From IMG/VR virus record IMGVR_UViG_3300017749_000012, positions 1 through 53,887 of that record: DNA of 53,887 nt, one strand, 5' to 3'. A program made the translations under genes and the position numbers. This DNA comes from a virus (taxonomy: Duplodnaviria > Caudoviricetes). Under the pieces are notes generated by a model, which was not told where the DNA came from, ran no database searches, and worked only from the letters and a program-made list of their open reading frames with translations. Shown in pieces: positions 190 to 21,470 of this stretch (positions are counted from its first letter, which is position 1; the number at the start of each line of letters is the position of its first letter).

Positions 190-720
190 ATGAGCGAAGC
201 CTTTGACGCAGCGTGGGCTGTAGTTAAGGCTGAGAGAGATACGCTCATGCGAATCGGTGACGGTAGTTTCGAGCCAAGGAAGATGCCGCCTGCGTTGCCC
301 GTGGGTGGGATTCGCGGGCTAAAAAATGTCCAATCTTTCGAGGCGCAGATGAGCGGGGAGCCTGACTACGACTATTACCCCGCTAACGCGAGAGTCGCTC
401 ATCCTGCCATTCAGGGGTTGATGTCGAGGCGGGGTATGCCGGTGTATTCTCGCAGGTCGCAAGTCGTCGCATCACCTGACCCAAACAGCGGCGTGGAGAT
501 GGAGCGTTATCTGAAACCTGACACGGTTTTCGACCCTGATGTCGGAGCGCAAGTGGCTGTGCACGGCTACCGCGACCCGACGATTGCCCATTCTCAGTTC
601 CACCCCGAAGGGCTGGCTCAGCGACAAATGAGGCAAGAAGAGGGGGACCAAATGCGTGAGCAAAAGCGGCTTTTCGGCATTGACCCGTCATTTACACGCT
701 ACCCCGAATTCACGCCGTGA
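190..720 (+). CDS. Hypothetical protein with N-terminal AFDAAWAVVK|A tag (putative internal head protein)
   Basis: ORF 184..720, ATG at 190; carries the shared tag and an internal HPAIxGxxxR motif also found in the next gene. Confidence 0.75.
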   Translation: MSEAFDAAWAVVKAERDTLMRIGDGSFEPRKMPPALPVGGIRGLKNVQSFEAQMSGEPDYDYYPANARVAHPAIQGLMSRRGMPVYSRRSQVVASPDPNSGVEMERYLKPDTVFDPDVGAQVAVHGYRDPTIAHSQFHPEGLAQRQMRQEEGDQMREQKRLFGIDPSFTRYPEFTP

Positions 721-728
721 TGCCGCAT

Positions 729-770
729 GACTCCTTTCGGGAGGTCCCCTTGAGAGGGAGGCCAACCTCC
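729..770. other. Cluster of short GC-rich hairpins in intergenic DNA (possible terminator or structured RNA)
   Basis: CTCC-TTTCG-GGAG (731-743), CCCT-TGAG-AGGG (747-758), GGAGG-CCAA-CCTCC (757-770). Confidence 0.35.
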
Positions 771-827
771 GACGCCTCTACTCTGATTGAACAGTAACTT
801 CTTATCAAGCGACATCATCCCATGGTC

Positions 828-1721
828 ATGAGCAGTGCGTTTGATGCCGCTTTTGACATCGTCAAGATGAATCACTTCAGCACCGTGTATGGTGTTGCTT
901 TGTTCGATGAACTCATCTCCAAGGCGATGCATGACGACGAACTGCGCAAGGGCGTCGAGGAATACTTGCAGATGTCGATGGGTGAATTGGCAGACTTGCC
1001 GCCCGAGGAGAAGGCCCACGCCTTCAACCTCCTCCAACAGCATATGGCTCAGCAACCGAAGGCCACTGCGAACCCACAGGGCGAGGCACCTATGCCTCAG
1101 GAGGCGGAGCCGCTGCAGAAAGCGTTCCGTGCCCTGCTTGACCATCATTTTTTTTTGAACAAAGCGCTGCCTGAGCAGCAGATGTTCGTAGAGCGCTCGC
1201 CTCGTGAAATCGCGGGAGGCGCTGAAGACTTCGAGTTCTTCCAAGAAGGTAACCCCGAAATTGACCGCTTTGGCGCTCGCTCCATGGGGACCGTTCACCC
1301 CGCCATCTACGGCATGCTTCAGCGAAACAGGGAAAACAGCCACCAAACTAAGGGCCTTTATCCAAACTTGAACTTGGATTTGGGAGCCGCTGAACAGCGG
1401 CGCATTGCGAGGCCTTTCAGCACCATGCGCTCCCCACTGTCTCCTGAAGAGCAAGCAGCAGACTATCGTGCTGGTATGTCCATCGCGCAAGGTCCTGAAT
1501 TTAACCGAACAATGTATGATGGCGAGAGAGCCAGCGAAGTGATGCAGTCAGTTGTTGACAAGGAGCGGAACAGGGTTCCCGGTGACCACAGAAGGAATGT
1601 TCCCAACTACTTGCAGCGGACGCACGATGACGCGAAATTCCCTCAGAGCAGTAGTGGTTTTGGTTATCCACGCCACATCCTCGATTATCCCACGCCTGAG
1701 GAAAGAGAACTCTACAGTTGA
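828..1721 (+). CDS. Hypothetical protein with N-terminal AFDAAFDIVK|M tag; distant paralog of 190..720
   Basis: ORF 822..1721; TTCTTATC box at about 800; internal TVHPAIYGMLQR; several xxK|A sites (LISKA, LQKA, LNKA). Confidence 0.75.
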   Translation: MSSAFDAAFDIVKMNHFSTVYGVALFDELISKAMHDDELRKGVEEYLQMSMGELADLPPEEKAHAFNLLQQHMAQQPKATANPQGEAPMPQEAEPLQKAFRALLDHHFFLNKALPEQQMFVERSPREIAGGAEDFEFFQEGNPEIDRFGARSMGTVHPAIYGMLQRNRENSHQTKGLYPNLNLDLGAAEQRRIARPFSTMRSPLSPEEQAADYRAGMSIAQGPEFNRTMYDGERASEVMQSVVDKERNRVPGDHRRNVPNYLQRTHDDAKFPQSSSGFGYPRHILDYPTPEERELYS

Positions 1722-1723
1722 TT

Positions 1724-1738
1724 CCGCTTCTTAAGCGG
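1724..1738. terminator. Hairpin CCGCTT-CTT-AAGCGG just after the stop at 1721
   Basis: Perfect 6-bp stem followed by GGCTTTTGT. Confidence 0.3.
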
Positions 1739-1771
1739 CAGGCTTTTGTCAGCACGGCCCATGGTTCTGCC

Positions 1772-3370
1772 ATGGCGGAAGCGTTCAACCCTGACGAGGT
1801 TGAGAAGTTTCTACCCGCAATTGCCGCTGCGGGTCGTGCTGCTCTTGGCTCTGCTAAAGTAGCAGGCAAAGCCGCTGCGAGCAAGGTCGGAGGAGCAGCA
1901 AAAGTCGCCGGTAGCAAGGCCGCCGAGATTGGTAGCGAAGTAGCCTCCAAAGTTGGTGATGTTGCTGAGCGTGCCAAAGATGCGACAAAAACGACTGAAG
2001 GCATGATGACAGACAAGCAGAAGACGCTGTCGCAAGCCGCCTCACAAGCCAAACAACAAATGCACGACAGTCAAATGCAGAATATGCAGCAGCGCCGTGA
2101 CCAAGAACAACGCGCCATCGAGACGGCTCGTAGTGCAGCGTCGACGGGCAGTCAGATTGGTAAAGCAGAAGATTTTGAAATTGACTACGATACTCCCTCT
2201 CACCTCTCGAGCGGTGATATTCTCAGTCCCGACACTATGTGTCAAATGTGCAAGCAAAACCCAGCACAATACAAAGCAGGTTACTCTTCCCGTGGTCGAC
2301 CCAATACTCCTATCGAATACAATCTGTGCGAGGCATGCTTCGACTCCTTTGGCACCGGTGGTGCCATGTCAACCTACTCTCGCTTCATTCGCGGCTCACC
2401 GATGAACATCGCTTGGCAGTTACTCAAGGCTCAGCAAACGATGTTGAAATCGAACGAATACATGGAAGAGGCCTTCGACTTAGGTTACCCACTCATCGAC
2501 CACAATGACTTGCACGACAAGCAACGAGCCATCGTCGACCTCATCGCCAACAAAGACGGAGCGAGGAAGGAATCCTACTGGAATGACCCCGCCAGCGGTG
2601 AATATGAGACCGATGCCTACAACGGTCTATTTCGACAGGACACGCATCAGCATTACCCCGATGAAGCATTTGAGCAATACCATCGCTACCTACAGCATTA
2701 CTTCGATGCTGCCGAGCAGACTGCCGCGTTGCCTCGCCAAAAGCAAATGGAAATCATGGACGCTGGACACCCGGAGCACCCAAATCGAATTGCCATGGCA
2801 CGAATGGCCAAGGAGTTTCCCGAGTGGGATGTTGAAAATCCACATCGGGCCTTTGACGAACGCTACTATCCGTCGGAGGAGGAGCGTAGACCGCAGCGAG
2901 GTCGCGCTGCCCGTATGGCATCAGGGGGTTTCCTTCGCTCAGAAGTGCTCGTCAAAGAGCGCCAGTCTCCTGAAGCCATGCGTCACAAGAGGGAATACGA
3001 CGCTGCATACAACAAGCGCCCTGACCAAGTCAAGTATCGTGAAGAACTCAACCGCGAGCGTCGACGCCGTGGCATCATGGGCAGTCACGACCACATGGAC
3101 GTCAGTCACACGCAGGGCGGCAAGTTGACTCTTGAGCCCGAACACTCCAACCGTGCTCGTCACTTCAGGGACAAAGGCACGTTGCGCGTTGTCAAGTCCG
3201 TCAAAGACGACGTCGAGATATTGCGCAATTTGATGCAGGGGCCGATGGATGAACAGGACAAGAAAATCGCTACAGCCATGGTCGGCATGCTCGAAGAACG
3301 GCACGCTGACGAGGAAGAGGAGAGCGAACTGGTGCAACCGATGTTTGGCGGTGCTCATCTATTCGCATAA
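1772..3370 (+). CDS. Modular protein: A/G/K-rich N-terminus, CxxC..CxxC zinc finger, internal PMNIAWQLLK|A tag, C-terminal HNH-like basic domain
   Basis: ORF 1718..3370, likely ATG at 1772; CQMC...CEAC; YNKRP..KYREELNRERR..DVSH..G......SNRAR resembles small phage HNH-like domains. Confidence 0.75.
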   Translation: MAEAFNPDEVEKFLPAIAAAGRAALGSAKVAGKAAASKVGGAAKVAGSKAAEIGSEVASKVGDVAERAKDATKTTEGMMTDKQKTLSQAASQAKQQMHDSQMQNMQQRRDQEQRAIETARSAASTGSQIGKAEDFEIDYDTPSHLSSGDILSPDTMCQMCKQNPAQYKAGYSSRGRPNTPIEYNLCEACFDSFGTGGAMSTYSRFIRGSPMNIAWQLLKAQQTMLKSNEYMEEAFDLGYPLIDHNDLHDKQRAIVDLIANKDGARKESYWNDPASGEYETDAYNGLFRQDTHQHYPDEAFEQYHRYLQHYFDAAEQTAALPRQKQMEIMDAGHPEHPNRIAMARMAKEFPEWDVENPHRAFDERYYPSEEERRPQRGRAARMASGGFLRSEVLVKERQSPEAMRHKREYDAAYNKRPDQVKYREELNRERRRRGIMGSHDHMDVSHTQGGKLTLEPEHSNRARHFRDKGTLRVVKSVKDDVEILRNLMQGPMDEQDKKIATAMVGMLEERHADEEEESELVQPMFGGAHLFA

Positions 3371-3390
3371 CGCCTATACGCGAGTAGCAC

Positions 3391-3486
3391 GTTGTCTCTG
3401 TTGTATTGTTAATATTATATATCATAGTAGTAGTATAGAGAATAGTAAGGACTTATCTCAAGACAACCTGCACAACGACGGACAAT
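3391..3486. promoter_or_regulatory. AT-rich core flanked by inward-facing GTTGT/ACAAC repeats (origin-like or packaging-site-like element)
   Basis: GTTGTC 3391, GTTGTA 3400, ATTGTT 3405; AT-rich 3405-3460; GACAAC 3462, CACAAC 3471, GACAAT 3481. GTTGTCT/AGACAAC is a perfect 7-bp inverted repeat. Confidence 0.45.
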
Positions 3487-3502
3487 CAAAGCGGGAACAT
3501 TT

Positions 3503-4135
3503 ATGTCTACCTCAGCAGTGCCCTCATCAGTGGTCGCTATGGATGACGACATGCAACACGAGGCCGAAATTCGCCTACTTGGGTTGATTCTCGCTCAGTC
3601 TACGCTGGTTGGCGTAGGTATCGGCGTTTTCGATGCTGACCTTTGGCTCAAAAACGACACGCCAATGCTGAACGGTTTCACTTACGCCATGGGGGCGTTT
3701 TTCATCCAAGGTATCGCTTACTACATGTTCAAGGTCTTTTTCGAGCAGGGTATGCGAGAGCGTGCCCGCATGTCTCAAATCGACCGGGAACGCACAAGCA
3801 AGTATCGCAACATGCAGCACTCATTCGACGAGCGTCGTGCGGAAATGGAACTACGCATGCAAGAAGCACAACTCGAGAAAGAGTTGCGCTGGATGGAGGC
3901 TAATCCCGGTCAGATGCCCCCGAGTTGGGGTGTGCGCGGTGGCTCACCGTCGCTCGTCGGTCAATATGACAGTCGCGGTGGGGCAGCAAGTCACTTTGAC
4001 GGCAGTCGCATTCCTACTCATACCGCTCACTCACAATCACCCCTCAGTCTGGGTGTTGCTGAGGAGAATCCTGAAAGCACTCCGCTGAAGAAAGACGGCA
4101 CGCCTGACAAGCGATACGTCAAGAAGGTGGAGTGA
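3503..4135 (+). CDS. Membrane protein (2 TM helices, coiled coil, C-terminal KKDGTPDKRY motif); true start may be 3530 or 3539
   Basis: Hydrophobic segments LLGLILAQSTLVGVGIGVF and FTYAMGAFFIQGIAYYMFKVFF; charged helix AEMELRMQEAQLEKEL. Confidence 0.75.
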   Translation: MSTSAVPSSVVAMDDDMQHEAEIRLLGLILAQSTLVGVGIGVFDADLWLKNDTPMLNGFTYAMGAFFIQGIAYYMFKVFFEQGMRERARMSQIDRERTSKYRNMQHSFDERRAEMELRMQEAQLEKELRWMEANPGQMPPSWGVRGGSPSLVGQYDSRGGAASHFDGSRIPTHTAHSQSPLSLGVAEENPESTPLKKDGTPDKRYVKKVE

Positions 4136-4140
4136 AGTGC

Positions 4141-4395
4141 ATGGGCCGTATCTTCAAGACGGTGTCCGACAATGCGACTGAGGAAACCCTTCGAGCGATT
4201 CATCTTGCTAACACGGTTGATACGACATATGAACGAGCGTGGGGTTGGGTTAAGACGCTCCTCGCATCTGTTCTAACAGCACTCGTCGTGAGCGGTATTG
4301 AATTTCACAACACTGAGTTCAGCGTCTATGAGTCGACTATCGACTGGGCAGCACAAAAGTTGAGAGACTTCGCCAATTGGTTGAAGTGGTGGTAG
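4141..4395 (+). CDS. Small membrane protein (1 TM plus Trp-rich amphipathic C-terminus)
   Basis: WGWVKTLLASVLTALVVSGI; C-terminus LRDFANWLKWW; AGGTGGAG SD before the ATG at 4141. Confidence 0.7.
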   Translation: MGRIFKTVSDNATEETLRAIHLANTVDTTYERAWGWVKTLLASVLTALVVSGIEFHNTEFSVYESTIDWAAQKLRDFANWLKWW

Positions 4396-4405
4396 AGGTG
4401 TCAGG

Positions 4406-5131
4406 ATGGTTGAGCCTGCAGGGACAGCATTGGTTGGCGCTGCCGTGTGGGGCCAAGCCCTCTACAATTCGTGGCGACCGCGAAAAGTCGGAATCTACGG
4501 GGCCCCCAAAGTCGGAAAAACTACTCTCGACCGATACATGACCACACCCGGTGAGATGGAAGCCATTTCAGACGAGGACCGCACCACTCACGAAAAGATG
4601 TTCAAGGTCATCGGGGCCTACAAAATGCCGAAACCGACTCGAAAGCGCATCGGGTGGGAAGGTCAGAAACGAGTGGTCTACTCCTCAGATGTCGGTGGCC
4701 AAGAGCGATTTTGGAATCTGTGGGTCGAAGACATGGTCACCCGTGGTGTTGAGGCCGTGGTCTACGTGTTCGATGAGCGTGCGTTCAAGGGAGGGGACGA
4801 AGGCTTGCAGCAGATTGCTGGCTTTCGTTTTCTCGTTGACCGCCTCATTACGAGAGATTATCGTTACCGCTCTTTCAAAGCAAGATTTCGCGGTCGTCGT
4901 TACGCACCTCGTCTTGTGATGTTGGTTGCCAATAAAGCCGACCGCTTCTTTGACGAAACGGCATCGAAGTTGTGGCACGACGGGCGTATTGGGGAGCACA
5001 AGGTCTTCGACCCCTTCAGGGACGACCTTATTCGTCTGCAAAAAGCAGGCATTCCAACTAAGCGCTCGTTCATGGCAACACGTATCGGATGGAACGTCGA
5101 GAAAACCATGCTGGACCTCTTGACCTCTTGA
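4406..5131 (+). CDS. Ras-superfamily small GTPase (Arf/Rab-like)
   Basis: G1 GAPKVGKTT (4499), G2 candidate DRTT, G3 DVGGQERF (4688), G4 NKAD (4931), G5-like MATRIGWNVE; hydrophobic N-terminal helix ALVGAAVWGQALYNSW. Confidence 0.9.
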   Translation: MVEPAGTALVGAAVWGQALYNSWRPRKVGIYGAPKVGKTTLDRYMTTPGEMEAISDEDRTTHEKMFKVIGAYKMPKPTRKRIGWEGQKRVVYSSDVGGQERFWNLWVEDMVTRGVEAVVYVFDERAFKGGDEGLQQIAGFRFLVDRLITRDYRYRSFKARFRGRRYAPRLVMLVANKADRFFDETASKLWHDGRIGEHKVFDPFRDDLIRLQKAGIPTKRSFMATRIGWNVEKTMLDLLTS

Positions 5132-5146
5132 TTGACCTATCAGGAA

Positions 5147-5158
5147 GGCTTTTATTTG
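5147..5158 (+). promoter_or_regulatory. Putative TATA-like box GGCTTTTATTTG for a leaderless start at 5178
   Basis: TTTTAT about 22 nt upstream of the ATG; no SD visible. Confidence 0.45.
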
Positions 5159-5177
5159 CATCGCTCTTGGTGAGCCC

Positions 5178-5387
5178 ATGGGCAGAAATGTTTCCACGAC
5201 TACGTTGCATGCTGCATCGTCAAAGACGGGCAGTTTGCGAACCACCGTGCCCATGTGGATTATCAACCACTTCAACCTCTCCGCTGGAGATGATGTGGAT
5301 TGGCGCTTCCATGTCCAAGATGGGAAGATGGTCGTAGTCATGGAACCTGTGGAGGGCGTCTTCGATGCTACCAAGAATCTCAAATAA
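5178..5387 (+). CDS. AbrB/SpoVT-type swapped-hairpin DNA-binding protein
   Basis: SLRTTVPMWIINHFNLSAGDDVDW matches the archaeal AbrB-like SxxxTIPxxIxxxLxLxxGDxxxW pattern; 69 aa. Confidence 0.75.
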   Translation: MGRNVSTTTLHAASSKTGSLRTTVPMWIINHFNLSAGDDVDWRFHVQDGKMVVVMEPVEGVFDATKNLK

Positions 5388-6309
5388 TCCTGCGCTTTAC
5401 CAGAGCAATGCTGCGCACCTTGCGACGTTAGCGACGCAAGGGAATGAGCAACTCACACAAGCAGCCTTGACTGAGATGATGGCTGCCCAGCAAGGTATGC
5501 AGGAAGTAGCAGCCCATCAAAACCTCGAAGTTCCGAAGGTGAACTTCTATCCGAGCACCCACCCTGACCCTCGAAAAGCACGTCGGAGGGACATCAAACA
5601 GGCCTACAAGTTGCTTCAGCCTGCTAAGCGTAGCATTTTCAACCCTCTTCGCTGGGCCGGTAACAAGCATCGCTATGCGAAGGACACCGGCGTATGTGTT
5701 GTCGACGGGTGCAACGTCACTGAACTCATCAAGCACGACAATCTCTACATGCGCATCTGCGATGAGGGGACAGGGCGTAGCCTCGACGAGATGTATTGGC
5801 AGAATCCAGTAACCGGTCAACCGGAAGCCTTCATCGCTCGTGACCGCGTGACTGGGGGTAAGAAAATGCGCGGCACGTATTGCCCTGAGCATCTACATCT
5901 CTATCACCTGCTCACAAAGTGGGAGGCTGAAGAGGACAAGCAGAACGAGATGAACCCTCGGCGTCTGCGTGACAAGGTCAAGCGCGGTGTTTCCATTGTG
6001 ACTGTGCCTGTGGCTGCGGTTAGGACGAAGGAAGTCATGCCTCCCCTTGTTGTGAAGTATGAACCGTGGTTTGATGAACTAATGCGGGATGCTGGTCGCA
6101 CCAAAGCCATCCGCATCGAGCGCTTTGATAATCCGCTGAGCGGCGAGAATGACTTGGTGCAAGTGACGTTCGATAGTCGTTACATGCGCTGGGAAATGGA
6201 GCAGGCTAACCTACCAACGGCTGAGTTTCAGGCCCTCCTCGCACAACAACAGGCGATGTTAACGCCTCAACAGAACCTTGATGTCGATGGACTCGCTGGG
6301 CAGGTGTGA
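5365..6309 (+). CDS. Hypothetical protein with a probable Zn-binding site (CVVDGC ... YCPEH)
   Basis: GGAGG SD at 5351; 314-aa ORF; CxxxxC and CxxH pairs; Q-rich termini. Confidence 0.7.
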   Translation: MLPRISNNPALYQSNAAHLATLATQGNEQLTQAALTEMMAAQQGMQEVAAHQNLEVPKVNFYPSTHPDPRKARRRDIKQAYKLLQPAKRSIFNPLRWAGNKHRYAKDTGVCVVDGCNVTELIKHDNLYMRICDEGTGRSLDEMYWQNPVTGQPEAFIARDRVTGGKKMRGTYCPEHLHLYHLLTKWEAEEDKQNEMNPRRLRDKVKRGVSIVTVPVAAVRTKEVMPPLVVKYEPWFDELMRDAGRTKAIRIERFDNPLSGENDLVQVTFDSRYMRWEMEQANLPTAEFQALLAQQQAMLTPQQNLDVDGLAGQV

Positions 6310-6314
6310 GTCTG

Positions 6315-6965
6315 ATGTTCAACTTTGGTCAACCCCAGCAACCCGCCGGACTAAATCTTTCGCAAACGGGGGCTCCAACGGGAGCCATGCAACATCCTCA
6401 ATCGTTTGGCCTCGGAGTTGCACAGCCACCTCAACAGAACGCCTTCATGAACGGGATGATGGGGGGTATGGGCACTCAACAACAATACGGTCAGATGCAG
6501 CAGTTCGGTCAACAGCCCGTCGCTCCTCCAAGTGAAATGGAATTGATGAACGCTCTCTTGCAGTCTCAAAATCCAATCCACCGTTTTATCGCAACGGGTG
6601 GACTGGCTGCAGTCATCGACCTCGTTGCCACTGCTACGTCCCTCTCGTTGCTCACGATTCTCAAAGAAGCCACCTTTGTCATTGATGACGAGGAAGGAGC
6701 CATGAAGATGGACATGACTTCGCTTCCCGACGCCCTCAAGACGCTTAGTGCCGAGAACGTAGGAATGGCCCTGAATCAAGTTGTGAACTCGAGTCAGCAG
6801 ACTATTCAGCAGGCTGAAATGCAGCGTCAGCAGATTCTCGCTTTGAGTCAACAATCCATGATGGGTGGTGCTCTCGCTGCTGCGATGGCTGATGACAACA
6901 TGATAGAGAAGGTTGGCGGTGGCATTGGCACTGTCGCTCGCTCATTCATGGGACTCCCGAAATAA
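6315..6965 (+). CDS. Q/G/M-rich low-complexity protein with FG motifs, a hydrophobic helix and an amphipathic C-terminus
   Basis: MFNFGQPQQ..SFGLG..QQFGQQP; FIATGGLAAVIDLVATATSLSLLTIL; IEKVGGGIGTVARSFMGLPK. Confidence 0.7.
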   Translation: MFNFGQPQQPAGLNLSQTGAPTGAMQHPQSFGLGVAQPPQQNAFMNGMMGGMGTQQQYGQMQQFGQQPVAPPSEMELMNALLQSQNPIHRFIATGGLAAVIDLVATATSLSLLTILKEATFVIDDEEGAMKMDMTSLPDALKTLSAENVGMALNQVVNSSQQTIQQAEMQRQQILALSQQSMMGGALAAAMADDNMIEKVGGGIGTVARSFMGLPK

Positions 6966-6974
6966 TGAGGTGAA

Positions 6975-7229
6975 ATGATGCAACGACGACCGCAAGGATT
7001 TGGGCCGATGGAATCGCTATCTCAAGGTAGCGTGCAGGTGTTTTCACCGACGCGAAGCGTCATCACTGACATGATAATGGTGCAGTTCATCAGCATGATT
7101 GTCGTCTTTGGTCTCATTCTGCTGCTCAAGGGAGGCACGCTGGGTGCAAACTCAGTCAGCGCTTACCTCATCGGCATCATGTTTTCCTCGGTTGTCCTCG
7201 GTCGCATCTACAGCAGTCTCACTCGGTGA
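6975..7229 (+). CDS. Small 2-TM membrane protein (holin-like size)
   Basis: GAGGTGA SD; IMVQFISMIVVFGLILLL and VSAYLIGIMFSSVVLG. Confidence 0.7.
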   Translation: MMQRRPQGFGPMESLSQGSVQVFSPTRSVITDMIMVQFISMIVVFGLILLLKGGTLGANSVSAYLIGIMFSSVVLGRIYSSLTR

Positions 7230-7457: not shown

Positions 7458-7481
7458 GGTAGGTCGTCCAACTACTGCGAG

Positions 7482-7493: not shown

Positions 7494-7517
7494 TTCGATG
7501 TTGCTTTAGAAGCGCTC

Positions 7518-8204: not shown

Positions 8205-8605
8205 TGGAGGTGCCTGTTCCTGACCTTTTGCAGGTCAGTCACCCCGGCTACCGCCTCGTCGTTGCTCGTCCGAATTTGCGTGAAGGAGACGTCATGAACA
8301 TCGTCGAATACGCTGAGCGAATGGCTGAGCGTTTCGAGCATTATGGGCAAGTGTGCATCACGGCGCCCTTCCTTTTTGAGATGCTCAAAAATTCGTTTCG
8401 CACGCTTCTTCATGATGATGACCCCGGTGTCGTGCTCCCCGTTCGAGAACTTGCTTCTCGTTTGCTTGAAGAGCATGAAGCGATGACGCACAGCATGATT
8501 CGGGCGTTTCCAATCAACCCAATCGTGAAGAGCGTCTACACAGATTTGAGTGAACTGCTCTATGATGCCTTTCACATGTTGACTGGAGGTGAGTGGCTTG
8601 AGTGA
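8201..8605 (+). CDS. Hypothetical protein (134 aa)
   Basis: ATGA overlap with the upstream stop; GGAGGAG SD. Confidence 0.65.
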   Translation: MMEVPVPDLLQVSHPGYRLVVARPNLREGDVMNIVEYAERMAERFEHYGQVCITAPFLFEMLKNSFRTLLHDDDPGVVLPVRELASRLLEEHEAMTHSMIRAFPINPIVKSVYTDLSELLYDAFHMLTGGEWLE

Positions 8606-10316
8606 AGGGATGATGGGTCGTGGCTCAGACACCCGCATCTACGCCCCTCGCTCTGAGTCTTCGCACATGTTCCGTGCGAACCACGAGGATGAACGCACAC
8701 CCACCGGGATGGATGATGCTCGCGACAAGGATGCTCGTATGGACAAGCGTCAGAAAAAGAAGGAGGCGGAAGATAAGGAGGACCGCAAGATTCGCCACAT
8801 CAAAGTGCGTCGCCATCACATGGGTCTTGACAAACCAGAAGAAGAACGTGAGGAGGATGAGCCTTCGTTCAAGCCTCGCACCTCACCCAGCGAACCCACT
8901 CAGCCCGCTGGTGCTGGTGGATTCCTGACCAGTCTCGCCATGCAGGCGAGAGGCCCCGGTGCTGCTGGAGGCGAGATGATTCAGATGAGTGAGGCGATGG
9001 AGCACGCTTGGTCAACTTTACTGAAAATGTCTGAGGCTGAGGCTCTTGATTACCACAGCCCTGAAAATGAAGTCGAGCGAAAATTAGCGAGAAAAGAAGC
9101 CTATGAAGGTCGTCGTATGCGATTGCGGGACGGGTTATCTCGGAAAATAAGGGGAGATGCCGTGGCAGCAGGCGACCGAAACGTCATGGCTGGTATTGAC
9201 TCACGTCTACGCTTCGCTCACAGCACTCACCCTGAGATGATTCAGCAAAGGGGCATGCTCCCTGAAGAAAAAATGCCCCCTCTACCCCTTCGCGCTGAAG
9301 AGAGAAACGAAATTGCTGACCTGCGAGATGTCGCTCGTAGAGCCGGTATGAGTCCTGAGGCGCTCTACCACAGGCGAGCCTATTCTAACACCATGCTCCC
9401 TCCCGGTCCATTCGGTGAACCTGAACAGGGGCCAGTCGACATTCAAGATTCACCCATACCGGGAATGGCTTTTGTCAACGGCCAGTTGATGAGCGACCCC
9501 CGTATCAAGAACGCCAGCGCTCCGATGGACCACGCTTGGTCTGAGATTCTCAAGTCCAAGCGAAAGGGCGAGAAGCGTCAGAAAAAGGAGCGACGTGCCA
9601 AGTGGCGCCCGTCCACTGGTAAGTTCAAGCGACCTCGCGGTGGTTACACTGGACGTTCTGGAACCTCGGCGCGTGCGAAACTCCTGTCCCGTAACCTACC
9701 GATGGGACGCAAGACAGGTCTGATGCGACCTCACCTGTCAGTGGAAATGAGTCACCGTGGTATTGCGAGCAAACAACCCATGTCCAAGGACCCTCAAGCC
9801 TACGGTCAGTGGCGCGGTTACCAAGAGCAGCAAAATATTCGTGGTCAAATCGCCCCGCAAAGCGGAGCCTCTCTACCCTTCGGGCAAGTCAGTATGCCTC
9901 GTGTTCCGCGACCTCGCTTGCACCCAGTGCGTGCTCCTCCGATTCAACCACCTCGCTTGCGTCGACCACGTCTGAGTCGACCAAAAATGCCCGGTATGGT
10001 CACCATGAGCGAGGACCCTGTTCCTGACGGTGGTCTCATCAAGGCTGGTCAGAACCACTACCTCCTCGCTGAGGCTCGCACCGCACTTCGTGAAATGCGG
10101 CAACTCATGCGCCGAATGAAGGACAAGGACAGCAAAAAGAAGAACATGGGTGCACCTGATACGGCTGGTGCAGCCTCGACGCTGCCTAAATATCCCGGCA
10201 ACAATCCGAAGCAGACGACCCGTCCTGAGGGCGCTACTGAAGATGAAACTGATGCCCGGACTTTTGGCCTTGACCCAATCGGTTATCTGACTGGTCGGGG
10301 AGGCAACCGAGCATGA
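8598..10316 (+). CDS. Basic, disordered protein with two AW tags (AMEHAWSTLLK, PMDHAWSEILK); putative internal/DNA-condensing head protein
   Basis: GGAGGTGA SD then TTG at 8598 (or ATG at 8610); R/K/P-rich blocks such as KRKGEKRQKKERRAK and PRLRRPRLSRPK. Confidence 0.75.
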   Translation: MSEGMMGRGSDTRIYAPRSESSHMFRANHEDERTPTGMDDARDKDARMDKRQKKKEAEDKEDRKIRHIKVRRHHMGLDKPEEEREEDEPSFKPRTSPSEPTQPAGAGGFLTSLAMQARGPGAAGGEMIQMSEAMEHAWSTLLKMSEAEALDYHSPENEVERKLARKEAYEGRRMRLRDGLSRKIRGDAVAAGDRNVMAGIDSRLRFAHSTHPEMIQQRGMLPEEKMPPLPLRAEERNEIADLRDVARRAGMSPEALYHRRAYSNTMLPPGPFGEPEQGPVDIQDSPIPGMAFVNGQLMSDPRIKNASAPMDHAWSEILKSKRKGEKRQKKERRAKWRPSTGKFKRPRGGYTGRSGTSARAKLLSRNLPMGRKTGLMRPHLSVEMSHRGIASKQPMSKDPQAYGQWRGYQEQQNIRGQIAPQSGASLPFGQVSMPRVPRPRLHPVRAPPIQPPRLRRPRLSRPKMPGMVTMSEDPVPDGGLIKAGQNHYLLAEARTALREMRQLMRRMKDKDSKKKNMGAPDTAGAASTLPKYPGNNPKQTTRPEGATEDETDARTFGLDPIGYLTGRGGNRA

Positions 10317-12610
10317 GGTTCGTTCGCATCGTCAAGTCTGCGGACATCATTCTGAAAGGTCATGGGAACTATGCTTTCTATGGGGGTGTCCCCCATCTCT
10401 TGTCAAATCCACCGCCTGAAGCATTCAGTGGTGACCCGAACACGCCTGACGTTCCGTTGTTCGCGCACTACGGTTCGTATCGACCTCACTCTTCAGGTCA
10501 TCCCGGTATGGGTGAATTAATCCCCGGCTCTTTCCGTCGAGGTAAGCATGGAGAAATGGCCTACCACACTGATGGTTTCGACCACCATCACGGCCATGAC
10601 GCAGTGTGGCATCACCTCGGAGAAGCGCTTGCTGGGAAGGGGCTCGACCCAGCCGAGGCGAAGAATATCCTTCAACGAGCCATTGACGAATACAACGCTG
10701 CTCACAAAGATGAGAGCAGGCATCATCACCTTCCTGACGTTGATTCTATGGAGTGGCGCAAAATTAAGGCTACACCTTACAACGGGAACATGGAGCCTAC
10801 TCGTCGGCCAAACACGAGCGTTGACGGTCACTTTACGACAGCCTTTACCAATCGCCCAAACCGTCAAGAAAAAGTCGGACACTTCATCGAATCCTATTCT
10901 ATTCCCTATCACTCTCAACTTAAGCGCATCATTCAGGAGATGGGACTCGACACTATCGCCAATACTGAATGGGCTTCGAGAGGGCATCTCTCAATCGACG
11001 ATGCTCATCCCGCTGGTCGACGTCTTAAGGGACGCGGCGGTGACATCATTGGACCTCGTGGTGAACTACCGGATTCGCACATCACGAACGCCCCCGGCGG
11101 CGTCAATTTCGACCCCGCCTTCGACCAAATACAATCATGGTCGGTTATTCGACACGCTCCTGACCTCATGCACTACAAACTGGCCCGTCAGCAAACACCT
11201 GCGGCGGAAACCATGCGTAGCGCACGAGGGCACATCAAGCAAGCGCTTAAGCGGGCTGCTGAAAACCCTGAAATCGTCCCTGACGTGATGGTGCCCATCA
11301 ATACAGCGCAAACCTCAGGTGGCACCAACTACTCGATGCAGTCACTCAAAAGCGTGCTTCAAAGTGAAGAGATGACAAAAAATCTTCTCGGGGAGTTGGG
11401 TAGAACATCTGCGCTTACTGCTCTCTTTGGGCGTCTTAAGTCAGGTGGGCAAACTCGCCCTAACTCAGGGGCTCGAATTTTCAATCACTTGCTTGACGCG
11501 TTTGGTGGTGACCCTGATGAAGAAGGGAATCGAACGAAATATGACAACCTGATGCAACACGCGCTTCAAGGGCAACACGTCCCCCTTGAGCCTGAGTTTA
11601 TGTCAGGAAATAAACACCCGACGAAAAACGGGAGCACTCACAAAAATATGGCTCAAATGTATGTGAAGGCTATGCTTTCAGGGGCTCATGAAGATGGCAC
11701 GAGCAATCTTCGCCACTATAGTCCTGAGCCCGAGATTCTTCAGCAACTCGGCGTTAGCCACGAGGGCATCGAGCAAGAAAATGTCGATGCTCGACGTCAA
11801 GCCATTGAGGGTATTGCTACTATGATGGCTCGCGCATTCGGTCACGATGAGCATCGTGATGTGCCCGAGCAACTTCCCGAAGGCGGTCTTGCTGGACGCA
11901 CAGTGATGGGTTACCCTGACGAACTCATCGAAGCAATCCCCGGTCACGTCCCTTATTTCACTGACTTGGCTATGTCGACCACGGCTATGGCTTCAACGCC
12001 AACTCGTCCTGAACCCGCTCCTCGTCGCCCCGTTACTCAGAACGAACCTCTTCCTCCTGCTGGGACACCCCCCGTGGCAAGAGACCCAAGCAGGCAAGTG
12101 GCAGTTCGTGGCGCGAATGCTATGCCTCTCGGGCAACTGACACCTGAGCAGCAAGCCGCTCGAGCAGGTGTTGGTCAAGCCGACCCCGCAACGCTCCGCC
12201 AGTTTATGGGAATGACAGGGTTTGGGCCAACGGCAGGAACTGGTGCCCTGACTCCTCAGGAACAACAGTTCCAGCAATCATTCGGTGACCCTCGTCAACG
12301 TTTGCTTACTGAATACATGAAAAGCCAAGACAACGTGCTTCCCGAAACCGACCGATTGATGAAGGCGATGGAGAGCATGCAGCGCGACGCTGCTTTGCTT
12401 GAGACACGCGTTGTGAAAAATGCCCTACCTCGCCCAGTCAACATTGCAGATGAGCACGGGGTGCGCTATCTTGCCAAGCACATGGGCCTCACTCCAGTGG
12501 ATGTCCGCTCCATCGCTCATCAAATGGGTGACTGGGAACGTATTGCCAAGCGACTGAACGTCTCATCTGACGTAGTGAAGGTTGTCAAAATCAGTGTAGG
12601 GGGCATCTGA
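10313..12610 (+). CDS. Large His-rich hypothetical protein with C-terminal HTH-like region; putative internal virion protein
   Basis: 765 aa; N-terminal IVK|S and ILK|G; C-terminal LAKHMGLT..IAKRLNVSSDVV. Confidence 0.75.
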   Translation: MRFVRIVKSADIILKGHGNYAFYGGVPHLLSNPPPEAFSGDPNTPDVPLFAHYGSYRPHSSGHPGMGELIPGSFRRGKHGEMAYHTDGFDHHHGHDAVWHHLGEALAGKGLDPAEAKNILQRAIDEYNAAHKDESRHHHLPDVDSMEWRKIKATPYNGNMEPTRRPNTSVDGHFTTAFTNRPNRQEKVGHFIESYSIPYHSQLKRIIQEMGLDTIANTEWASRGHLSIDDAHPAGRRLKGRGGDIIGPRGELPDSHITNAPGGVNFDPAFDQIQSWSVIRHAPDLMHYKLARQQTPAAETMRSARGHIKQALKRAAENPEIVPDVMVPINTAQTSGGTNYSMQSLKSVLQSEEMTKNLLGELGRTSALTALFGRLKSGGQTRPNSGARIFNHLLDAFGGDPDEEGNRTKYDNLMQHALQGQHVPLEPEFMSGNKHPTKNGSTHKNMAQMYVKAMLSGAHEDGTSNLRHYSPEPEILQQLGVSHEGIEQENVDARRQAIEGIATMMARAFGHDEHRDVPEQLPEGGLAGRTVMGYPDELIEAIPGHVPYFTDLAMSTTAMASTPTRPEPAPRRPVTQNEPLPPAGTPPVARDPSRQVAVRGANAMPLGQLTPEQQAARAGVGQADPATLRQFMGMTGFGPTAGTGALTPQEQQFQQSFGDPRQRLLTEYMKSQDNVLPETDRLMKAMESMQRDAALLETRVVKNALPRPVNIADEHGVRYLAKHMGLTPVDVRSIAHQMGDWERIAKRLNVSSDVVKVVKISVGGI

Positions 12611-13866
12611 TGAGCAAGGTCCTCGTGCGAAAGGCCATCGAGCCTGTTGTCAACATCGGGAGCAGTGGTCCTGAGTTGGCTTTTCAACAAACGCTTGGAC
12701 GCAACTCTACAGACAAGAAATTGCCTGACAGGGGTCCGCTCGACCGCGAGACTCCGCTTGACGCATCGACTGCTCGTCATCAAGCCCGCGAGGCTGAGGC
12801 GGCGCTGGCTCAGGATTACAGCATGAGCCCACAGGAGTATTTCCTCGCAAATCAAAACAGGCCAGCGACTGAAGTTGACATGGACGAATACACTCGTGGA
12901 CGTCTTCAGGCCCAACGTAGGGCGAAAGAGGGGCAACCTCGCTCATACGCTGAACGCTATGGTGCTGATGCCTACGACCGCTTCACAAACAGTCAGAAAA
13001 CCTACAATCAACCGATTTCACATGAAGTCAGGGAGCGAGCGAACTTACGAGGCGCAAGAGCAGCAGATGTTGGTGTTCGCGGACGTCAGTTTGGGCGTGG
13101 GGTCGCTGGAGCGCTTGCTGGTCTTTCCTTCCTCGGTGGTCTTGAATCAGCAGGAGCGGCTGGCGCCGGTCTTGAGCAAGGCATTGGTGGTGGTGCGTTA
13201 CGAGCGCAAGCCACCTACGGACAAGCCGCACCTATGCTGACAAACATAGGTGGAGAGGCAGGCGCTCGTCTTGGCGCAGGGAGCGTCGGTGTAAGAGAGA
13301 GAGTGGATGAAGCGCGTGCAGCACAAGCAGCGCGAGCCGCCGCTCGACAACCTGTCGCCGTAGCAGCGCCCACCGTTGAGCCGCCTACTCAGCAAAGGTC
13401 ACAAATGACGTCTCCCTATTCCGACTATAGCGTTGAGCAGTTGGAGTCGATTCTCTCACACAACATGCCGGGAGCGTTACCTACCCATGAGGCAGCGTTA
13501 GTGGGGGCTCGTCGCCGAGCATCTCCTACGACAGCAAACCGACCCTTCGACATGCGAGGTGGTGCCTACAACGCCGATGTGTTCGAGCCTGTGCCTCAAT
13601 TTAACCCAGCATCACAAGCGCCCGGTGCCCCGGCAGGTCAAACTAACCTCACCTCTCTCATTGGTATTCAGCCCGCTCAGCCTAACGTGGCTGAGCCTAT
13701 GACCGCCGCTCCGATACCCACGACGGCAACAGGTATGGCGGCGGCTTTCCAACCACAGCAACAGGGAAGTGAGCCTGCTCCTCCTGCGGGTGGAGTCAAG
13801 GCTACTCAAGAACAAGCAAAGAGACTACAAGAGGGCTTTATGGGGGGAATGAACGGTGGGGAGTGA
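12610..13866 (+). CDS. Ala/Gly/Gln-rich protein; candidate DNA pilot or ejection protein
   Basis: N-terminal LVRK|A; Gly-zipper-like segment GRGVAGALAGLSFLGGLESAGAAGAGLEQGIGGGAL; disordered P/Q/A tail. Confidence 0.65.
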   Translation: MSKVLVRKAIEPVVNIGSSGPELAFQQTLGRNSTDKKLPDRGPLDRETPLDASTARHQAREAEAALAQDYSMSPQEYFLANQNRPATEVDMDEYTRGRLQAQRRAKEGQPRSYAERYGADAYDRFTNSQKTYNQPISHEVRERANLRGARAADVGVRGRQFGRGVAGALAGLSFLGGLESAGAAGAGLEQGIGGGALRAQATYGQAAPMLTNIGGEAGARLGAGSVGVRERVDEARAAQAARAAARQPVAVAAPTVEPPTQQRSQMTSPYSDYSVEQLESILSHNMPGALPTHEAALVGARRRASPTTANRPFDMRGGAYNADVFEPVPQFNPASQAPGAPAGQTNLTSLIGIQPAQPNVAEPMTAAPIPTTATGMAAAFQPQQQGSEPAPPAGGVKATQEQAKRLQEGFMGGMNGGE

Positions 13867-15343
13867 CAAGTCCGCTGAAATGCAGACACTTGTCCTTGAG
13901 ATGGACAAGAAGATGTCCACTCGCTCTTTCAAATACTTCTTTGAGACGGTGTTAGGGTTCGACTACGCCGACCATCACGGCATGTGGGATAAGGGGTTGA
14001 GCGACAACCGCTACTATTGCGTGAAAGCAAGTCGCGACCATGGCAAGTCCGTGTTCTTCATGTCTTACGCGCTGTGGATTGCGGCATTCAAACCCGGCAC
14101 GCACATCATGATTTTCTCTCACTCGTTGGAACAGACGCTCGAGCACATGCGTTTCATTCGACAGAACATTCAGAACTCGCCGTGCCTAAAGGAACTGATT
14201 CCTTCGGGCAAACCGTGGCGCAAGACCTACTTTGAGTTCACCAACGGTAGCCGTATCATGGCAAAGTCCGTCGGCGGGGGAACTCGTGGATTCCACCCTG
14301 ATGTTGTTCTCTGTGACGACATTTTGTGGGGCACTACTGGGTCTGAATTACAGCGTGCAGCAGACTGGTTCTACGGTGTTCTACTCCCTGTGCTCCACCA
14401 CACCGGTCGTCTGATGATGGTCGGCACACCTTTCAGTTACAACGACTTGTATGCTCAACTTGAGAAGACTGAGACCTTCCAAGTGGAAACTTACCCTGCC
14501 ATCAATCGTGAAGGTGAAGCGTTGTGGCCTGAGCGCTGGGACCTTGAGTCTCTCGACCAACGGCGTATGACGATGCCTGCCATTCAATTCACACGCGAAT
14601 ATCTGTGTGAACCGATTCACGACGTTGCCAGCATGTTCCCAATGGCACTCCTTGAGAAGGCACGCGACCATAATCTGAAACTCTTGGATGTAGCCGACAG
14701 TGAATACGATGAGAACGGTGACCGCGTCGGTGTTCTTGGTCATCACTTCGTGGGTTGGGACACGGCCATCGCATCGGACAAGAACGCTGACTACACGGCC
14801 ATGACTGTCTTGCGCACGTTGCCTGATGAGGACATCAAGCAAATCGTTGGTATTGTGCACGAGCAGGGTATGGGGTCTGCAGCGCAGAAGCGTGCCATCA
14901 TCATCCTCAACAACAAGTTTCAGCCTGACCTCATCGAACTTGAGGGTAACAACTTCCAGCGGATGTTTGCCATGGAACTGCAAGACATCCGTCAAGACAT
15001 TCCGATTCGCACCTTCATGACTACGCGCACCCGTAAGGAGAGCCTCTTCATGTCGCTGCTCATGGCGTTTGAGCAGGGCCAAATCAAAACGCCCTACGGC
15101 GATGACCGCTCCAAGCGTTTCACGCACAAACTCGAAGAGGAGTTGACTCGTTTTGGTATGCAAAAGAGCGGACGCCTCGAAAGCGTCGGTGTTCACGATG
15201 ACCTCGCCATGAGCCTCGCTCTTGCTAATTGGGCGACCAAGGAGTTCAGGGGCAGTGTCATTATGTTGGATGACTTCATGCCCGGATTCGACGAGTGGTT
15301 GACGGGCAAGCCCCGCAAGAAAGATGGATGGATGATACCATGA
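13856..15343 (+). CDS. terL: Terminase large subunit
   Basis: Walker A ASRDHGKS, Walker B VVLCDD, coupling motif VGTP, nuclease motifs VGWDTA..DYTA and HDDLAMSLALA. Confidence 0.95.
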   Translation: MGSDKSAEMQTLVLEMDKKMSTRSFKYFFETVLGFDYADHHGMWDKGLSDNRYYCVKASRDHGKSVFFMSYALWIAAFKPGTHIMIFSHSLEQTLEHMRFIRQNIQNSPCLKELIPSGKPWRKTYFEFTNGSRIMAKSVGGGTRGFHPDVVLCDDILWGTTGSELQRAADWFYGVLLPVLHHTGRLMMVGTPFSYNDLYAQLEKTETFQVETYPAINREGEALWPERWDLESLDQRRMTMPAIQFTREYLCEPIHDVASMFPMALLEKARDHNLKLLDVADSEYDENGDRVGVLGHHFVGWDTAIASDKNADYTAMTVLRTLPDEDIKQIVGIVHEQGMGSAAQKRAIIILNNKFQPDLIELEGNNFQRMFAMELQDIRQDIPIRTFMTTRTRKESLFMSLLMAFEQGQIKTPYGDDRSKRFTHKLEEELTRFGMQKSGRLESVGVHDDLAMSLALANWATKEFRGSVIMLDDFMPGFDEWLTGKPRKKDGWMIP

Positions 15344-16287
15344 AAGAAGAGAAAGTTGGAAAGAAGCCCAAAGGCGCAGTGCTCGTCATCTCAATCGGCA
15401 AGCCGTCAGACAAGAGTCCCATGCGTGCTGCTGACCCTGATACGAAAGAGAAGGCTGAGCGCAATCCTCCTGCCTTCTTATCCAAAGCCACTCCGGCTGA
15501 ACTCATGGGGGAAGCCGAGCGAATGCGCGGAGCCGGTGAGAAGGGTCATGCTCGACGCTTTGCTGATGTTGCTTCTCAAATGGAGAGGGGCCCTGCACTT
15601 AGGGAGTCAACCATCGAGCGACTTGGGACTGAAGCATCTCAATTGCTGGGTGATGATGAAGATGACCGTGAGGCTTTTGCTCGCTTCCTCTACGGTGAGG
15701 GTAAGCGAGGCGCAGATTACCAAGACATGCGTATCAATCCGAGTCTCTACGACCCCAGCGCTCGTCGACGTTTCATGAAGGTCATGTCTCAGATGGAGCG
15801 ACAAAAGGGACGCGCCGAAGCCATGGAGTCTGAAGGGCAGGAACAATTGCAGGCGCTTCGCGCCGAAGACCCAACACGGTTCTTTGCTGACCAAGACATG
15901 GTGCAACGGGCACTCGACAACCTCGAAGCACTTGATGCGTTGCAGAAGGGTGCAGCAGTCGATTTTTGCTCGTGTTGCACACCCAGTGAAATTGCTTGGG
16001 CCATCGCGAAAGCCAAGAAGAAGTCCAAGCCCTTTCACGGTTATAATCCGAATCGCCATCACAAGAAGGGTGGGTTGAACGCTAAGGGTCGTGCAAAAGC
16101 CAAGCGCGAGACTGGAGCGAACCTTAAGCCACCTGTTACTACCAAACCGAGCAAACTCAAACCCGGCTCCAAGAAAGCCAAGCGTCGCAAATCGTTCTGC
16201 GCTCGCATGGGTGGCATGAAGGGACCAACGTCCAAGAAGGGCAAACTCACACCGAAAGGTGCTGCACTGAGAAGGTGGAATTGTTGA
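15340..16287 (+). CDS. Protein with PSEIAWAIAK|A tag followed by a basic C-terminal domain (GGLNxKGR..RRKSFCARM..LRRWNC; DUF6321-like from recollection)
   Basis: ATGA overlap with the terL stop; recognisable marine-phage basic domain. Confidence 0.75.
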   Translation: MKEEKVGKKPKGAVLVISIGKPSDKSPMRAADPDTKEKAERNPPAFLSKATPAELMGEAERMRGAGEKGHARRFADVASQMERGPALRESTIERLGTEASQLLGDDEDDREAFARFLYGEGKRGADYQDMRINPSLYDPSARRRFMKVMSQMERQKGRAEAMESEGQEQLQALRAEDPTRFFADQDMVQRALDNLEALDALQKGAAVDFCSCCTPSEIAWAIAKAKKKSKPFHGYNPNRHHKKGGLNAKGRAKAKRETGANLKPPVTTKPSKLKPGSKKAKRRKSFCARMGGMKGPTSKKGKLTPKGAALRRWNC

Positions 16288-16457
16288 GCGACCCGTTTGA
16301 CATCTGTTTTGACGACCTACGCAAGAAGTTGTGCCCCGCAGGGAAAGCAGCAGCCAAGAGGAAGTTCAAGGTCTACCCCTCAGCCTATGCAAACGGCTGG
16401 GCTGTGCAATACTGCAAGGGGAAATTCCGTGGCAAGAAGGGTGGGAAAAAGAAATGA
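16284..16457 (+). CDS. Small basic protein (PFDICFDDLRK tag-like segment, then KxKFKVYPSAYA domain)
   Basis: AGGTGG SD; YPSAYA motif common in small viral basic proteins. Confidence 0.7.
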   Translation: MSDPFDICFDDLRKKLCPAGKAAAKRKFKVYPSAYANGWAVQYCKGKFRGKKGGKKK

Positions 16458-21457: not shown

Positions 21458-21470
21458 AGGTGGTGTGAAT

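Follow-up and report, generated by a model that had tools for sequence, protein, structure and literature searches.

A recurrent AW...LLK element ahead of exchangeable protein modules in a magrovirus-like genome: a candidate signal for head loading and protease trimming

Why does the same short peptide stand ahead of proteins that otherwise have little in common? This question is raised by the virus record IMGVR_UViG_3300017749_000012, whose 53,887 nucleotides we analysed in full and refer to as the window, and in which a motif of the form AW...LLK, hereafter the tag, recurs from protein to protein. A preliminary description of this DNA had proposed that the tag forms an amphipathic helix that recruits varied cargo to the procapsid of an archaeal virus, and that the prohead protease then cuts after its Lys. 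We thus analysed the tag in the window and in its relatives, which were sampled as 80 loci around related terminases (70–94% identity). As a result, the tag was found to be a real, modular and position-independent element, with motif and modularity on solid ground, and the earlier interpretation as a whole was partly supported.

The window (53.9 kb) is the entire virus record, with an estimated completeness of ~50%. Its major capsid protein shares 33–34% identity with those of the haloarchaeal siphoviruses HVTV-1 and HCTV-1/5/16, and the same level of identity has been reported for magrovirus capsid proteins (PMC5434244). The relatives are contigs of ~100–110 kb, with a gene for a B-family DNA polymerase on the opposite strand, and the window was therefore treated as a partial magrovirus-like genome. 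By analogy with the viruses in the account of PMC5434244, Marine Group II archaea are the putative hosts.

A short conserved peptide and its anatomy

All seven copies in the preliminary description were recovered, on the + strand and in six open reading frames (ORFs); two further, eroded copies were recognised by comparison with relatives. In the following lines and throughout, a slash marks the junction after the Lys.

199..228, + strand: AFDAAWAVVK, N-terminus of ORF 184-720, whose likely true start is ATG 190 (MSE...); 16.1 bits
837..866, + strand: AFDAAFDIVK, N-terminus of ORF 822-1721
2399..2428, + strand: PMNIAWQLLK, residues 228-237 of ORF 1718-3370, between its Cys-rich N-part and its C-part; 20.6 bits
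~2927..2965, + strand: decayed tag GFLRSEVLVK/ERQSPEA in ORF 1718-3370, directly ahead of the phrog_6437 domain (residues 415-484)
8994..9026, + strand: AMEHAWSTLLK, residues 136-146 of the basic protein of ORF 8589-10316; 25.9 bits
9522..9554, + strand: PMDHAWSEILK, residues 312-322 of ORF 8589-10316, directly before its Lys/Arg-rich C-part; 22.4 bits
15982..16011, + strand: PSEIAWAIAK, residues 230-239 of ORF 15295-16287, directly before the DUF6321 domain; 8.1 bits
16293..16325, + strand: PFDICFDDLRK, N-terminus of the 60-residue ORF 16275-16457 (N-half of DUF5872); 24.1 bits
16642..16680, + strand: degenerate tag-like N-terminus SDRCTCYDVLIVK of ORF 16639-16953 (C-half of DUF5872)

At the decayed site of ORF 1718, relatives carry an intact tag, for example GFTRSEPMNIAFQLLK/ERVSPEAKRHK, and an intact tag likewise stands ahead of the DUF5872 C-half module in relatives (SEPMDLAFDAIKK/NLNRWFKEKW). 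The copy at 16293, in which C-F replaces A-W, is the most divergent one and sits in a Cys-bearing mini-domain. The tagged proteins had been called otherwise unrelated. With the tags masked, this held for every pair in the window except ORFs 184 and 822, which are weakly related (E 0.013 over 35 residues). These two ORFs (184-720 and 822-1721) also share a second short motif, (T)VHPAIxG[LM], which occurs in the relative G001 (L082) in a tandem array of ~8 tagged paralogues; a search for relatives of ORF 822 among viral contigs found none.

We then asked how far chance could account for the tag. A regular expression derived from the preliminary description gave 8 matches in the six-frame translation of the window, one of which, on the - strand, crosses a stop, whereas 300 residue shuffles of the window gave a mean of 0.03 matches (0.53 with a looser expression). 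This expression was written from the window sites themselves, and the relatives provide the independent test. In the 80 loci, the loose expression gave 118 matches on the gene strand against 5 on the other. The scan of related contigs with a motif hidden Markov model (HMM), proposed in the preliminary description, yielded 209 gene-strand and 0 antisense matches at ≥10 bits among 28,134 stop-to-stop ORFs, a count that is partly circular because the 82 distinct training instances came from the same loci. Since the copies within the window encode the same residues with differing codons, selection acts on the peptide, and conservation is at the protein level. Chance and a DNA repeat were thus ruled out as the origin of the tag by the shuffles and the differing codons.

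The consensus of the tag is [SG]-E-P-M-[DE]-x-A-W-x(1,2)-L-L-K, with W, F, M or Y at the aromatic position. The Lys is present in 147 of 149 distinct contexts and is never replaced by Arg in that column; the two matches lacking it both lie in one protein of ~1850 residues and are probably false. Two spacing classes were distinguished, namely [MKR]-[SG]-E-P-M-D-[IL]-A-W-[QR]-L-L-K with the Lys at W+4 (70 contexts), and M-S-E-P-M-[DE]-x-A-W-S-[SE]-L-L-K with the Lys at W+5 (77 contexts). This one-residue shift of L-L-K relative to A-W suggests that helix and end are separate sub-elements of the tag. When a two-module relative was modelled with AlphaFold, both of its tags were short helices with a predicted local distance difference test (pLDDT) score of ~30, against 60–82 for the adjacent module, and the tag helices are not predicted to pack on that module. 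As for position, 84 of the 209 copies lie within 30 residues of an upstream stop, that is, at an N-terminus, and 125 are internal. The tag is thus modular and independent of position, and the picture of an N-terminal address is too narrow.

Tagged modules, chains and their distribution

We next describe what follows the tag. The 203 downstream segments fell into 48 BLAST clusters, and relatives encode chains of 3–6 tags between unrelated modules. For one such chain, all of the 93 other homologues bear 1–5 tags and contain the same modules in differing orders. A block analysis covered 114 proteins with at least two tags (340 tags, 2084 local homology blocks). As a result, 66% of the block starts were located within -10 to +3 residues of a tag start, compared with 8% for random points, and 53% of the block ends fell within -3 to +8 residues of a tag Lys, including 517 exactly on the Lys. 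Internal tags thus act as boundaries of shuffled modules in polyprotein-like chains. Indeed, separate ORFs or domains of the window occur elsewhere as tagged links of single chains (P0006, P0090 and P0096), and the recurring links include the DUF5872 C-half at 16639, DUF6321 and the phrog_6437 domain of ORF 1718. The two sides of the tag differ: the upstream side is variable, while the conserved module sequence begins right at the Lys without a linker, as in K/MPVVDTDVPG, K/AKKKSKPFHGYNP, K/KLCPEGKAAAK and K/ERVSPEAKRHK. Furthermore, stand-alone proteins of only 53–63 residues bear an N-terminal tag.

Few of the modules could be assigned to families. DUF6321 (PF19846) was matched by residues 256–328 of ORF 15295-16287 (2.9e-16, 60.3 bits, cut-off 28.5), and DUF5872 (PF19197) by ORF 16639-16953 at profile positions 55–114 (43.1 bits, cut-off 27.5). 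ORF 16275-16457 covers DUF5872 profile positions 11–44 at 16.8 bits and matches phrog_27331 at 1.9e-16. Beyond DUF6321, DUF5872 and phrog_6437, Pfam, PHROGs and NCBIfam gave nothing for the tagged proteins. DUF5872 is thus split into two window ORFs, each with its own tag or remnant, and the halves are independent tagged modules in relatives, so that the Pfam family seems to combine two units. The protein of ORF 8589 is very basic, with 106 Lys and Arg among 575 residues, and is probably disordered. In the ESM Atlas, residues 247–550 of ORF 1718 matched viral hypothetical clusters, with an HNH_3 lead at 0.85 only, and ORF 828-1721 had no usable match. Among the relatives, the model of a module with the motif GGHRMEALRQMGHGDTPVPV best matched Osa, a protein of the ParB/Srx fold (4ovb_A; Z 6.7, root-mean-square deviation 4.2, 119 residues), followed by sulfiredoxins (Z 4.6–4.7), PadC, a ParB-N domain and KorB; sulfiredoxins were also the top Foldseek matches (E 0.12). 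The module after it matched GNAT acetyltransferases at Z 2.4–3.7; one homologue is named a RimI-like acetylase (JGI) and another carries a precomputed PF00583 label. Another relative chain combines DUF7831 with a YAcAr SLOG domain.

These modules bear on the simplest explanation, in which the tag carries no signal and is either the inherited first helix of a small-domain family or a joint that eases the recombination of cassettes. The homology blocks do break at tags, and in the DUF5872 N-half the tag helix could join a three-helix mini-fold with a conserved Cys, although the model of this 60-residue protein of ORF 16275 has a mean pLDDT of 56.7, too low to place the helix against the domain. 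On the other hand, the downstream modules are mutually unrelated, comprising 48 clusters with ParB/Srx and GNAT-like folds, basic mini-domains and disordered basic regions, and the phage homologues of DUF5872 and DUF6321 match only past the tag (phrog_27331 from residue 17 of ORF 16275). A recombination joint should, moreover, be conserved as DNA, whereas the codons of the tag are not. We regard this explanation as improbable.

The chains suggest another possibility, that the tag is a polyprotein cut site for some other protease, either an embedded HExxH module or a host enzyme, and is unrelated to capsid loading. Chains of 3–6 tagged modules exist, HExxH was seen by eye in two of them (HELGH in P0021 and HEFTH in P0025), and embedded metallopeptidases have been proposed to release phage polyvalent proteins (PMC5512222). 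No profile confirmed these HExxH modules, and HExxH occurs in no tagged protein of the window, where the sole match, in an atypical context, lies in an untagged 1883-residue ORF. In addition, the tagged proteins of 53–63 residues have nothing upstream to be cut from, and the S78 prohead protease is the only recognisable protease encoded in the window. This possibility thus appears improbable, slightly less so than the absence of any signal.

We then examined which genes carry the tag and where they lie relative to the head genes of the window, which are as follows.

13856-15343: large terminase, T4-type
18199-19905: portal
26960-28333, + strand: prohead protease (Peptidase_S78) with a fused scaffold-like C-part, presumably the enzyme of processing
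28375-29550, + strand: major capsid protein, HK97 fold, 33–34% identity to haloarchaeal siphovirus capsid proteins

The tag was present in 51 of 53 orthologous ORFs of ORF 8589 (1–4 copies each) and in 43 of 45 of ORF 16275. For ORF 15295 it was detected in 14 of 42 at the 10-bit threshold, a low count because its tag type scores low. In contrast, the orthologues of the untagged genes gave none (terminase 0/84, portal 0/82, ORF 10313 0/59, and 0 for every other). The tag is thus a stable attribute of particular gene families. In the window and its near-complete relatives G001–G003, all tags are on the strand of the structural genes, within one stretch of 20–25 kb that extends from upstream of the terminase to just past it. 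The polymerase gene lies tens of kilobases from this stretch on the other strand, and the replication module of G000–G003 is untagged. Two further complete genomes, from more distant relatives, differ slightly: in G007 (terminase 53% identity) the capsid gene is directly followed by three small ORFs with N-terminal tags (L228–L229, ~24,991–25,907), and in G006 by one (L225 region); the tagged gene set is thus placed differently in these lineages and in the window. Tagged genes cluster beside or inside the head module; further tags of G006 are taken up below. The association of tagged genes with the head module is therefore strong, not absolute.

Outside these loci, strict back-translated patterns matched 39 stretches in IMG/VR. 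Two such patterns, which cover the commonest tag forms only, gave 0 matches in 185,579 bacterial and archaeal species (one genome each). When 5.8 billion proteins were searched with a profile, 117 of the 8000 scored had E ≤1, all of them of marine metagenome origin; one bears the label of a Parvibaculum metagenome-assembled genome and is presumably mis-binned.

The lysine end and the prohead protease

We then compared the Lys end of the tag with candidate processing sites in the head proteins. The protease was identified by a PF04586 match (1e-9) and by tblastn matches to annotated prohead proteases, and shares 28% identity over 151 residues with HK97 gp4; together with the capsid similarity given above, this bears out the earlier assignment of the DNA to an archaeal tailed virus with an HK97-family protease. 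The following sites were considered.

28462..28482, + strand: S30-E-L-L-K34/A35-D36 of the capsid protein, candidate maturation site at the start of the HK97-fold N-arm
27008..27016, + strand: L17-L18-K19 of the protease-scaffold protein, with a variable leader before it and the conserved catalytic domain directly after
27461..27475, + strand: F168-K-I-L-K172 of the protease-scaffold protein, at the end of the S78 domain and followed by a variable, gapped linker; a candidate junction only

The capsid site is the one that had been named as ELLK/AD. In an alignment of 120 diverse homologues (31–58% identity), the position two before the Lys (P3) is hydrophobic in 92, P1 (column 34) is K in 89, R in 14 and Q in 7, and P1' is A in 63, K in 23 and S in 12. 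The residue after P1' is D in 98 and the fourth after the Lys is P in 87. A run of [LVI]-[LI]-[TS]-[TS]-T-T-G follows the junction, while the leader ahead of it is of variable length, 16 to 108 residues. Among capsid relatives, the sole solved structure found, 6j3q_A, starts at about the K/A-D junction, and the HVTV-1 capsid protein has the same K-A-D with a leader 70 residues longer. In the protease, K19 is K in all 61 residues of its column and invariant in 45 sequences, and the K172 junction (F-x-I-L-K172) aligns with ...AAMK159 of HK97 gp4. In HK97 itself, the capsid cleavage site is established at K103/S104 (PMC10275583), and the HK97 record reads F-N-K/S at this point. The proposed likeness of the Lys end to the capsid site is thus extended, at the level of sequence, by hydrophobic-x-K in the 120 capsid proteins, at the protease N-terminus and in HK97. 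Capsid protein, protease and cargo appear to share one architecture, a variable or removable leader, hydrophobic-x-K and a conserved domain, and because of this architecture we read the tag end as a putative prohead-protease site. Consistent with this, at the level of sequence, the tag presents a Lys with a hydrophobic residue two before it, in a stretch that is predicted to be exposed and lies ahead of a domain, as in S78 substrates.

A second motif, M-[ST]-W-[DE]-E-[VI]-H-x-[LM]-A, was observed at 28280-28309, the end of the protease-scaffold protein, and at 20580-20609, the end of the 109-residue ORF 20313-20642. All 63 sequences of the protease-scaffold protein (MSWEEVHxLA) keep M, W, V, H, L and A unchanged, and M-S-W-[DE]-E-V-H-x-L-A may be the capsid-binding tail of two scaffold-type proteins. 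It is the likelier shell-binding element of the scaffold, so that the tag would more plausibly dock to the core than to the shell. Joint folding of the capsid protein, the protease-scaffold protein and the tag gave a score of 0.00, which speaks neither for nor against binding.

From these results, we favour, with a probability of about 0.4, the reading that the tag is a signal resembling the capsid targeting sequence (CTS) of phage T4, which marks modules for head loading and protease trimming. According to this reading, AW...LLK would be a portable two-part signal of magrovirus-like archaeal tailed viruses, composed of a short amphipathic helix, [SG]-E-P-M-[DE]-x-A-W, and a hydrophobic-hydrophobic-Lys end, and standing directly ahead of each cargo module in small stand-alone genes or polyprotein-like chains. 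The helix would dock the protein to the core of the assembling prohead (scaffold or inner shell), and the S78 protease would then cut after the Lys, as is supposed for capsid K34/A35 and for its own K19. Cleavage would strip N-terminal tags and free the modules of chains inside the head, where they might stay with the DNA or travel with it on delivery. The cargo of the window would then comprise the small proteins of ORFs 184 and 822, both halves of ORF 1718, pieces of ORF 8589, the DUF6321 domain and the DUF5872 half-domain. We prefer this reading because the module follows the Lys without a linker, because Arg never takes the place of the Lys, because L-L-K slides relative to A-W, and because proteins of only 53–63 residues are tagged at the N-terminus. 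The N-terminal copies (84 of 209) also support it, since a purely inter-domain cut site need not be there, and the ParB/Srx and GNAT-like folds fit because such domains are reported for capsid-packaged polyvalent proteins (PMC5512222).

Several points weigh against a loading and trimming signal. The hydrophobic-hydrophobic-K tripeptide occurs 0–6 times per window protein, and is so common that the match of the tag end alone has little statistical weight; the assignment of capsid K34/A35 as a cleavage site is drawn from conservation. The protease-scaffold protein has its own C-terminal motif, so that the tag need not be the capsid address. HVTV-1, the nearest cultured relative, has a related protease and capsid protein and no tag (best 4.7 bits in the first 100,000 of 102,319 bases), which suggests that the protease system works without one. 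Two of the G006 tags are found ~30 kb beyond the capsid gene, in the downstream direction, and one G006 tag is on the opposite strand. The cargo folds come from a low-confidence model (mean pLDDT 49.5; module 60–82) with modest scores, and the GNAT matches in Pfam (E 0.015 and 0.023) are both below the cut-off. Finally, we infer docking, cleavage and delivery from sequence, for viruses that are uncultured.

The same data can be read in terms of a linear motif independent of the protease, in which the amphipathic helix (M/F...A-W..L-L) plugs the groove of a shared viral or host hub. The tagged proteins would then be gathered at an assembly or replication factory or at a host machine, with neither encapsidation nor cleavage, and the Lys would be a contact residue. 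Like multivalent motifs, the tag occurs both at N-termini and internally with 1–5 copies per chain, and it was modelled as an isolated, low-pLDDT helix unpacked on the adjacent module. Moreover, the conserved untagged ORFs 3503, 4406, 5365, 6306, 7335, 10313 and 12610 (11–59 orthologous ORFs each), which always accompany the tagged genes, are hub candidates. However, a conserved, linkerless module after the Lys and a variable upstream side form an asymmetry that fits a propeptide junction better, and the sliding of L-L-K relative to A-W is odd for one rigid binding face. The absence of Arg at the Lys position and the recurrence of the hydrophobic-x-K junction in the capsid protein and the protease also speak against this reading. 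We thus consider a hub-binding motif rather unlikely, if less so than a cut site for another protease.

Returning to the head-loading signal, its fullest form, in which one magrovirus tag of ~12 residues is at once the head-loading address and the cut mark for arbitrary modules, as well as the joint at which modules are shuffled, is a tentative proposal that we would put below the favoured reading and above a hub-binding motif. Under this proposal, the modules would be nucleases, acetyltransferases and DNA-coating basic domains. If true, the tag would be without precedent as a capsid-targeting and processing signal, both among archaeal viruses and for proteases of the HK97/S78 type, and it would be ready for use in loading foreign proteins into such capsids. 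Magroviruses are among the most abundant viruses of ocean surface archaea, most of their genes are without known function, and they have not yet been grown; the signal would sort a large, fast-changing gene set as head-carried and host-delivered, and thus provide a first handle on the takeover of Marine Group II. The tags also give a rule for module exchange, with cassettes bounded by tags, and can be used to search marine viromes for candidate injected effectors. Should the signalling reading prove wrong, what remains is a strongly conserved linear motif, so far undescribed, in an abundant virus group. We found no published description of the tag in the literature searched, where supplementary gene tables might hold one: the main text of PMC5434244 mentions no motif, and PMC11706807 mentions nothing N-terminal, no polyprotein and no internal protein. 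Judged by titles, no capsid targeting sequence of an archaeal virus was found in the literature either.

Neighbouring genes and comparison with known systems

Other genes of the window were noted in passing and are listed here.

4406-5131: 241-residue ORF with the small-GTPase motifs GAPKVGKTT, DVGGQ and NKAD and 39 related ORFs; the Pfam matches to Roc and MMR_HSR1 are both sub-threshold, and the protein looks like a virus-encoded Arf/Rab-like GTPase
16976-18202: 408-residue ORF between terminase and portal with a LAGLIDADG-like stretch (GFLDADGYI) and no Pfam match; it is kept in 82 related ORFs, which is unusual for a homing endonuclease
20639-21457: 272-residue ORF with a Cys-rich unit in tandem (CPECG...KG.CMKMGCGAKMQK), 81 related ORFs and no Pfam match
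21276-26927: untagged 1883-residue ORF between portal and protease, of no Pfam family, where HVTV-1 has its gene 115 (1313 residues; 'zeta toxin' according to the depositors); a candidate large head-internal protein
39306-53885: one open frame of at least 4860 residues past the tail genes, which runs off the window end and is presumably a giant fibre or host-recognition protein

Finally, we compared the tag with known systems. Encapsulin cargo peptides are short and portable, and address unrelated cargo to the inside of an HK97-fold shell. They differ from the tag in sequence, are usually C-terminal and are not removed by a protease.

In phage HK97, the substrates of the prohead protease are the scaffold domain of the capsid protein and the protease itself, and no family of tagged cargo proteins is known. 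The HK97 protease belongs to the same Pfam family (PF04586) as that of the window, and both capsid junctions have a hydrophobic P3 and a Lys at P1 directly before the N-arm (F-N-K/S in HK97, L-L-K/A in the window). Unlike in HK97, the scaffold is here fused to the protease and not to the capsid protein.

Polyvalent proteins consist of 2–15 unrelated domains, and their packing into capsids and proteolytic release have been proposed (PMC5512222). Like the tagged chains, they are long series of unrelated domains beside virion genes. Their repertoire includes ParB/Srx DNase-like and RimI-like GNAT domains and zincin peptidases (PMC5512222), for which the chains of relatives offer candidates in the form of the modest fold matches and the HExxH motifs given above. 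Such chains near structural genes were found in the relatives P0001, P0004, P0006, P0021, P0025 and P0288, whereas the window resembles polyvalent proteins only weakly, through ORFs 1718 and 8589 with two or three parts. No conserved inter-domain tag is described for polyvalent proteins in the main text of PMC5512222, which never mentions linkers; there, release is mostly ascribed to embedded zincin peptidases, and the proteins are described from bacteria and their elements. The tag, in contrast, also heads single-module genes.

The closest parallel to the favoured reading is found in T4, whose diverse and rapidly evolving internal proteins share only an N-terminal CTS of 10–20 residues; this peptide attaches to the prohead core, and the prohead protease then cleaves it off at the motif of the protease itself (PMC3012670, PMC7411985). 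As in IPI–III and Alt of T4, a short peptide here stands on diverse proteins encoded near head genes, and the tagged set is highly variable between relatives. The tag end resembles the junctions proposed as sites of the S78 protease. The differences are also clear. The tag is unrelated in sequence to the CTS, the protease is of the S78/HK97 type and not gp21, the proposed cut falls after Lys and not after Glu, and the host is archaeal. Furthermore, the tag is also internal and repeated, delimiting the modules of chains, and its function is a proposal. On the basis of these comparisons, the tag would be a functional analogue of the T4 CTS at most, and no member of that family.

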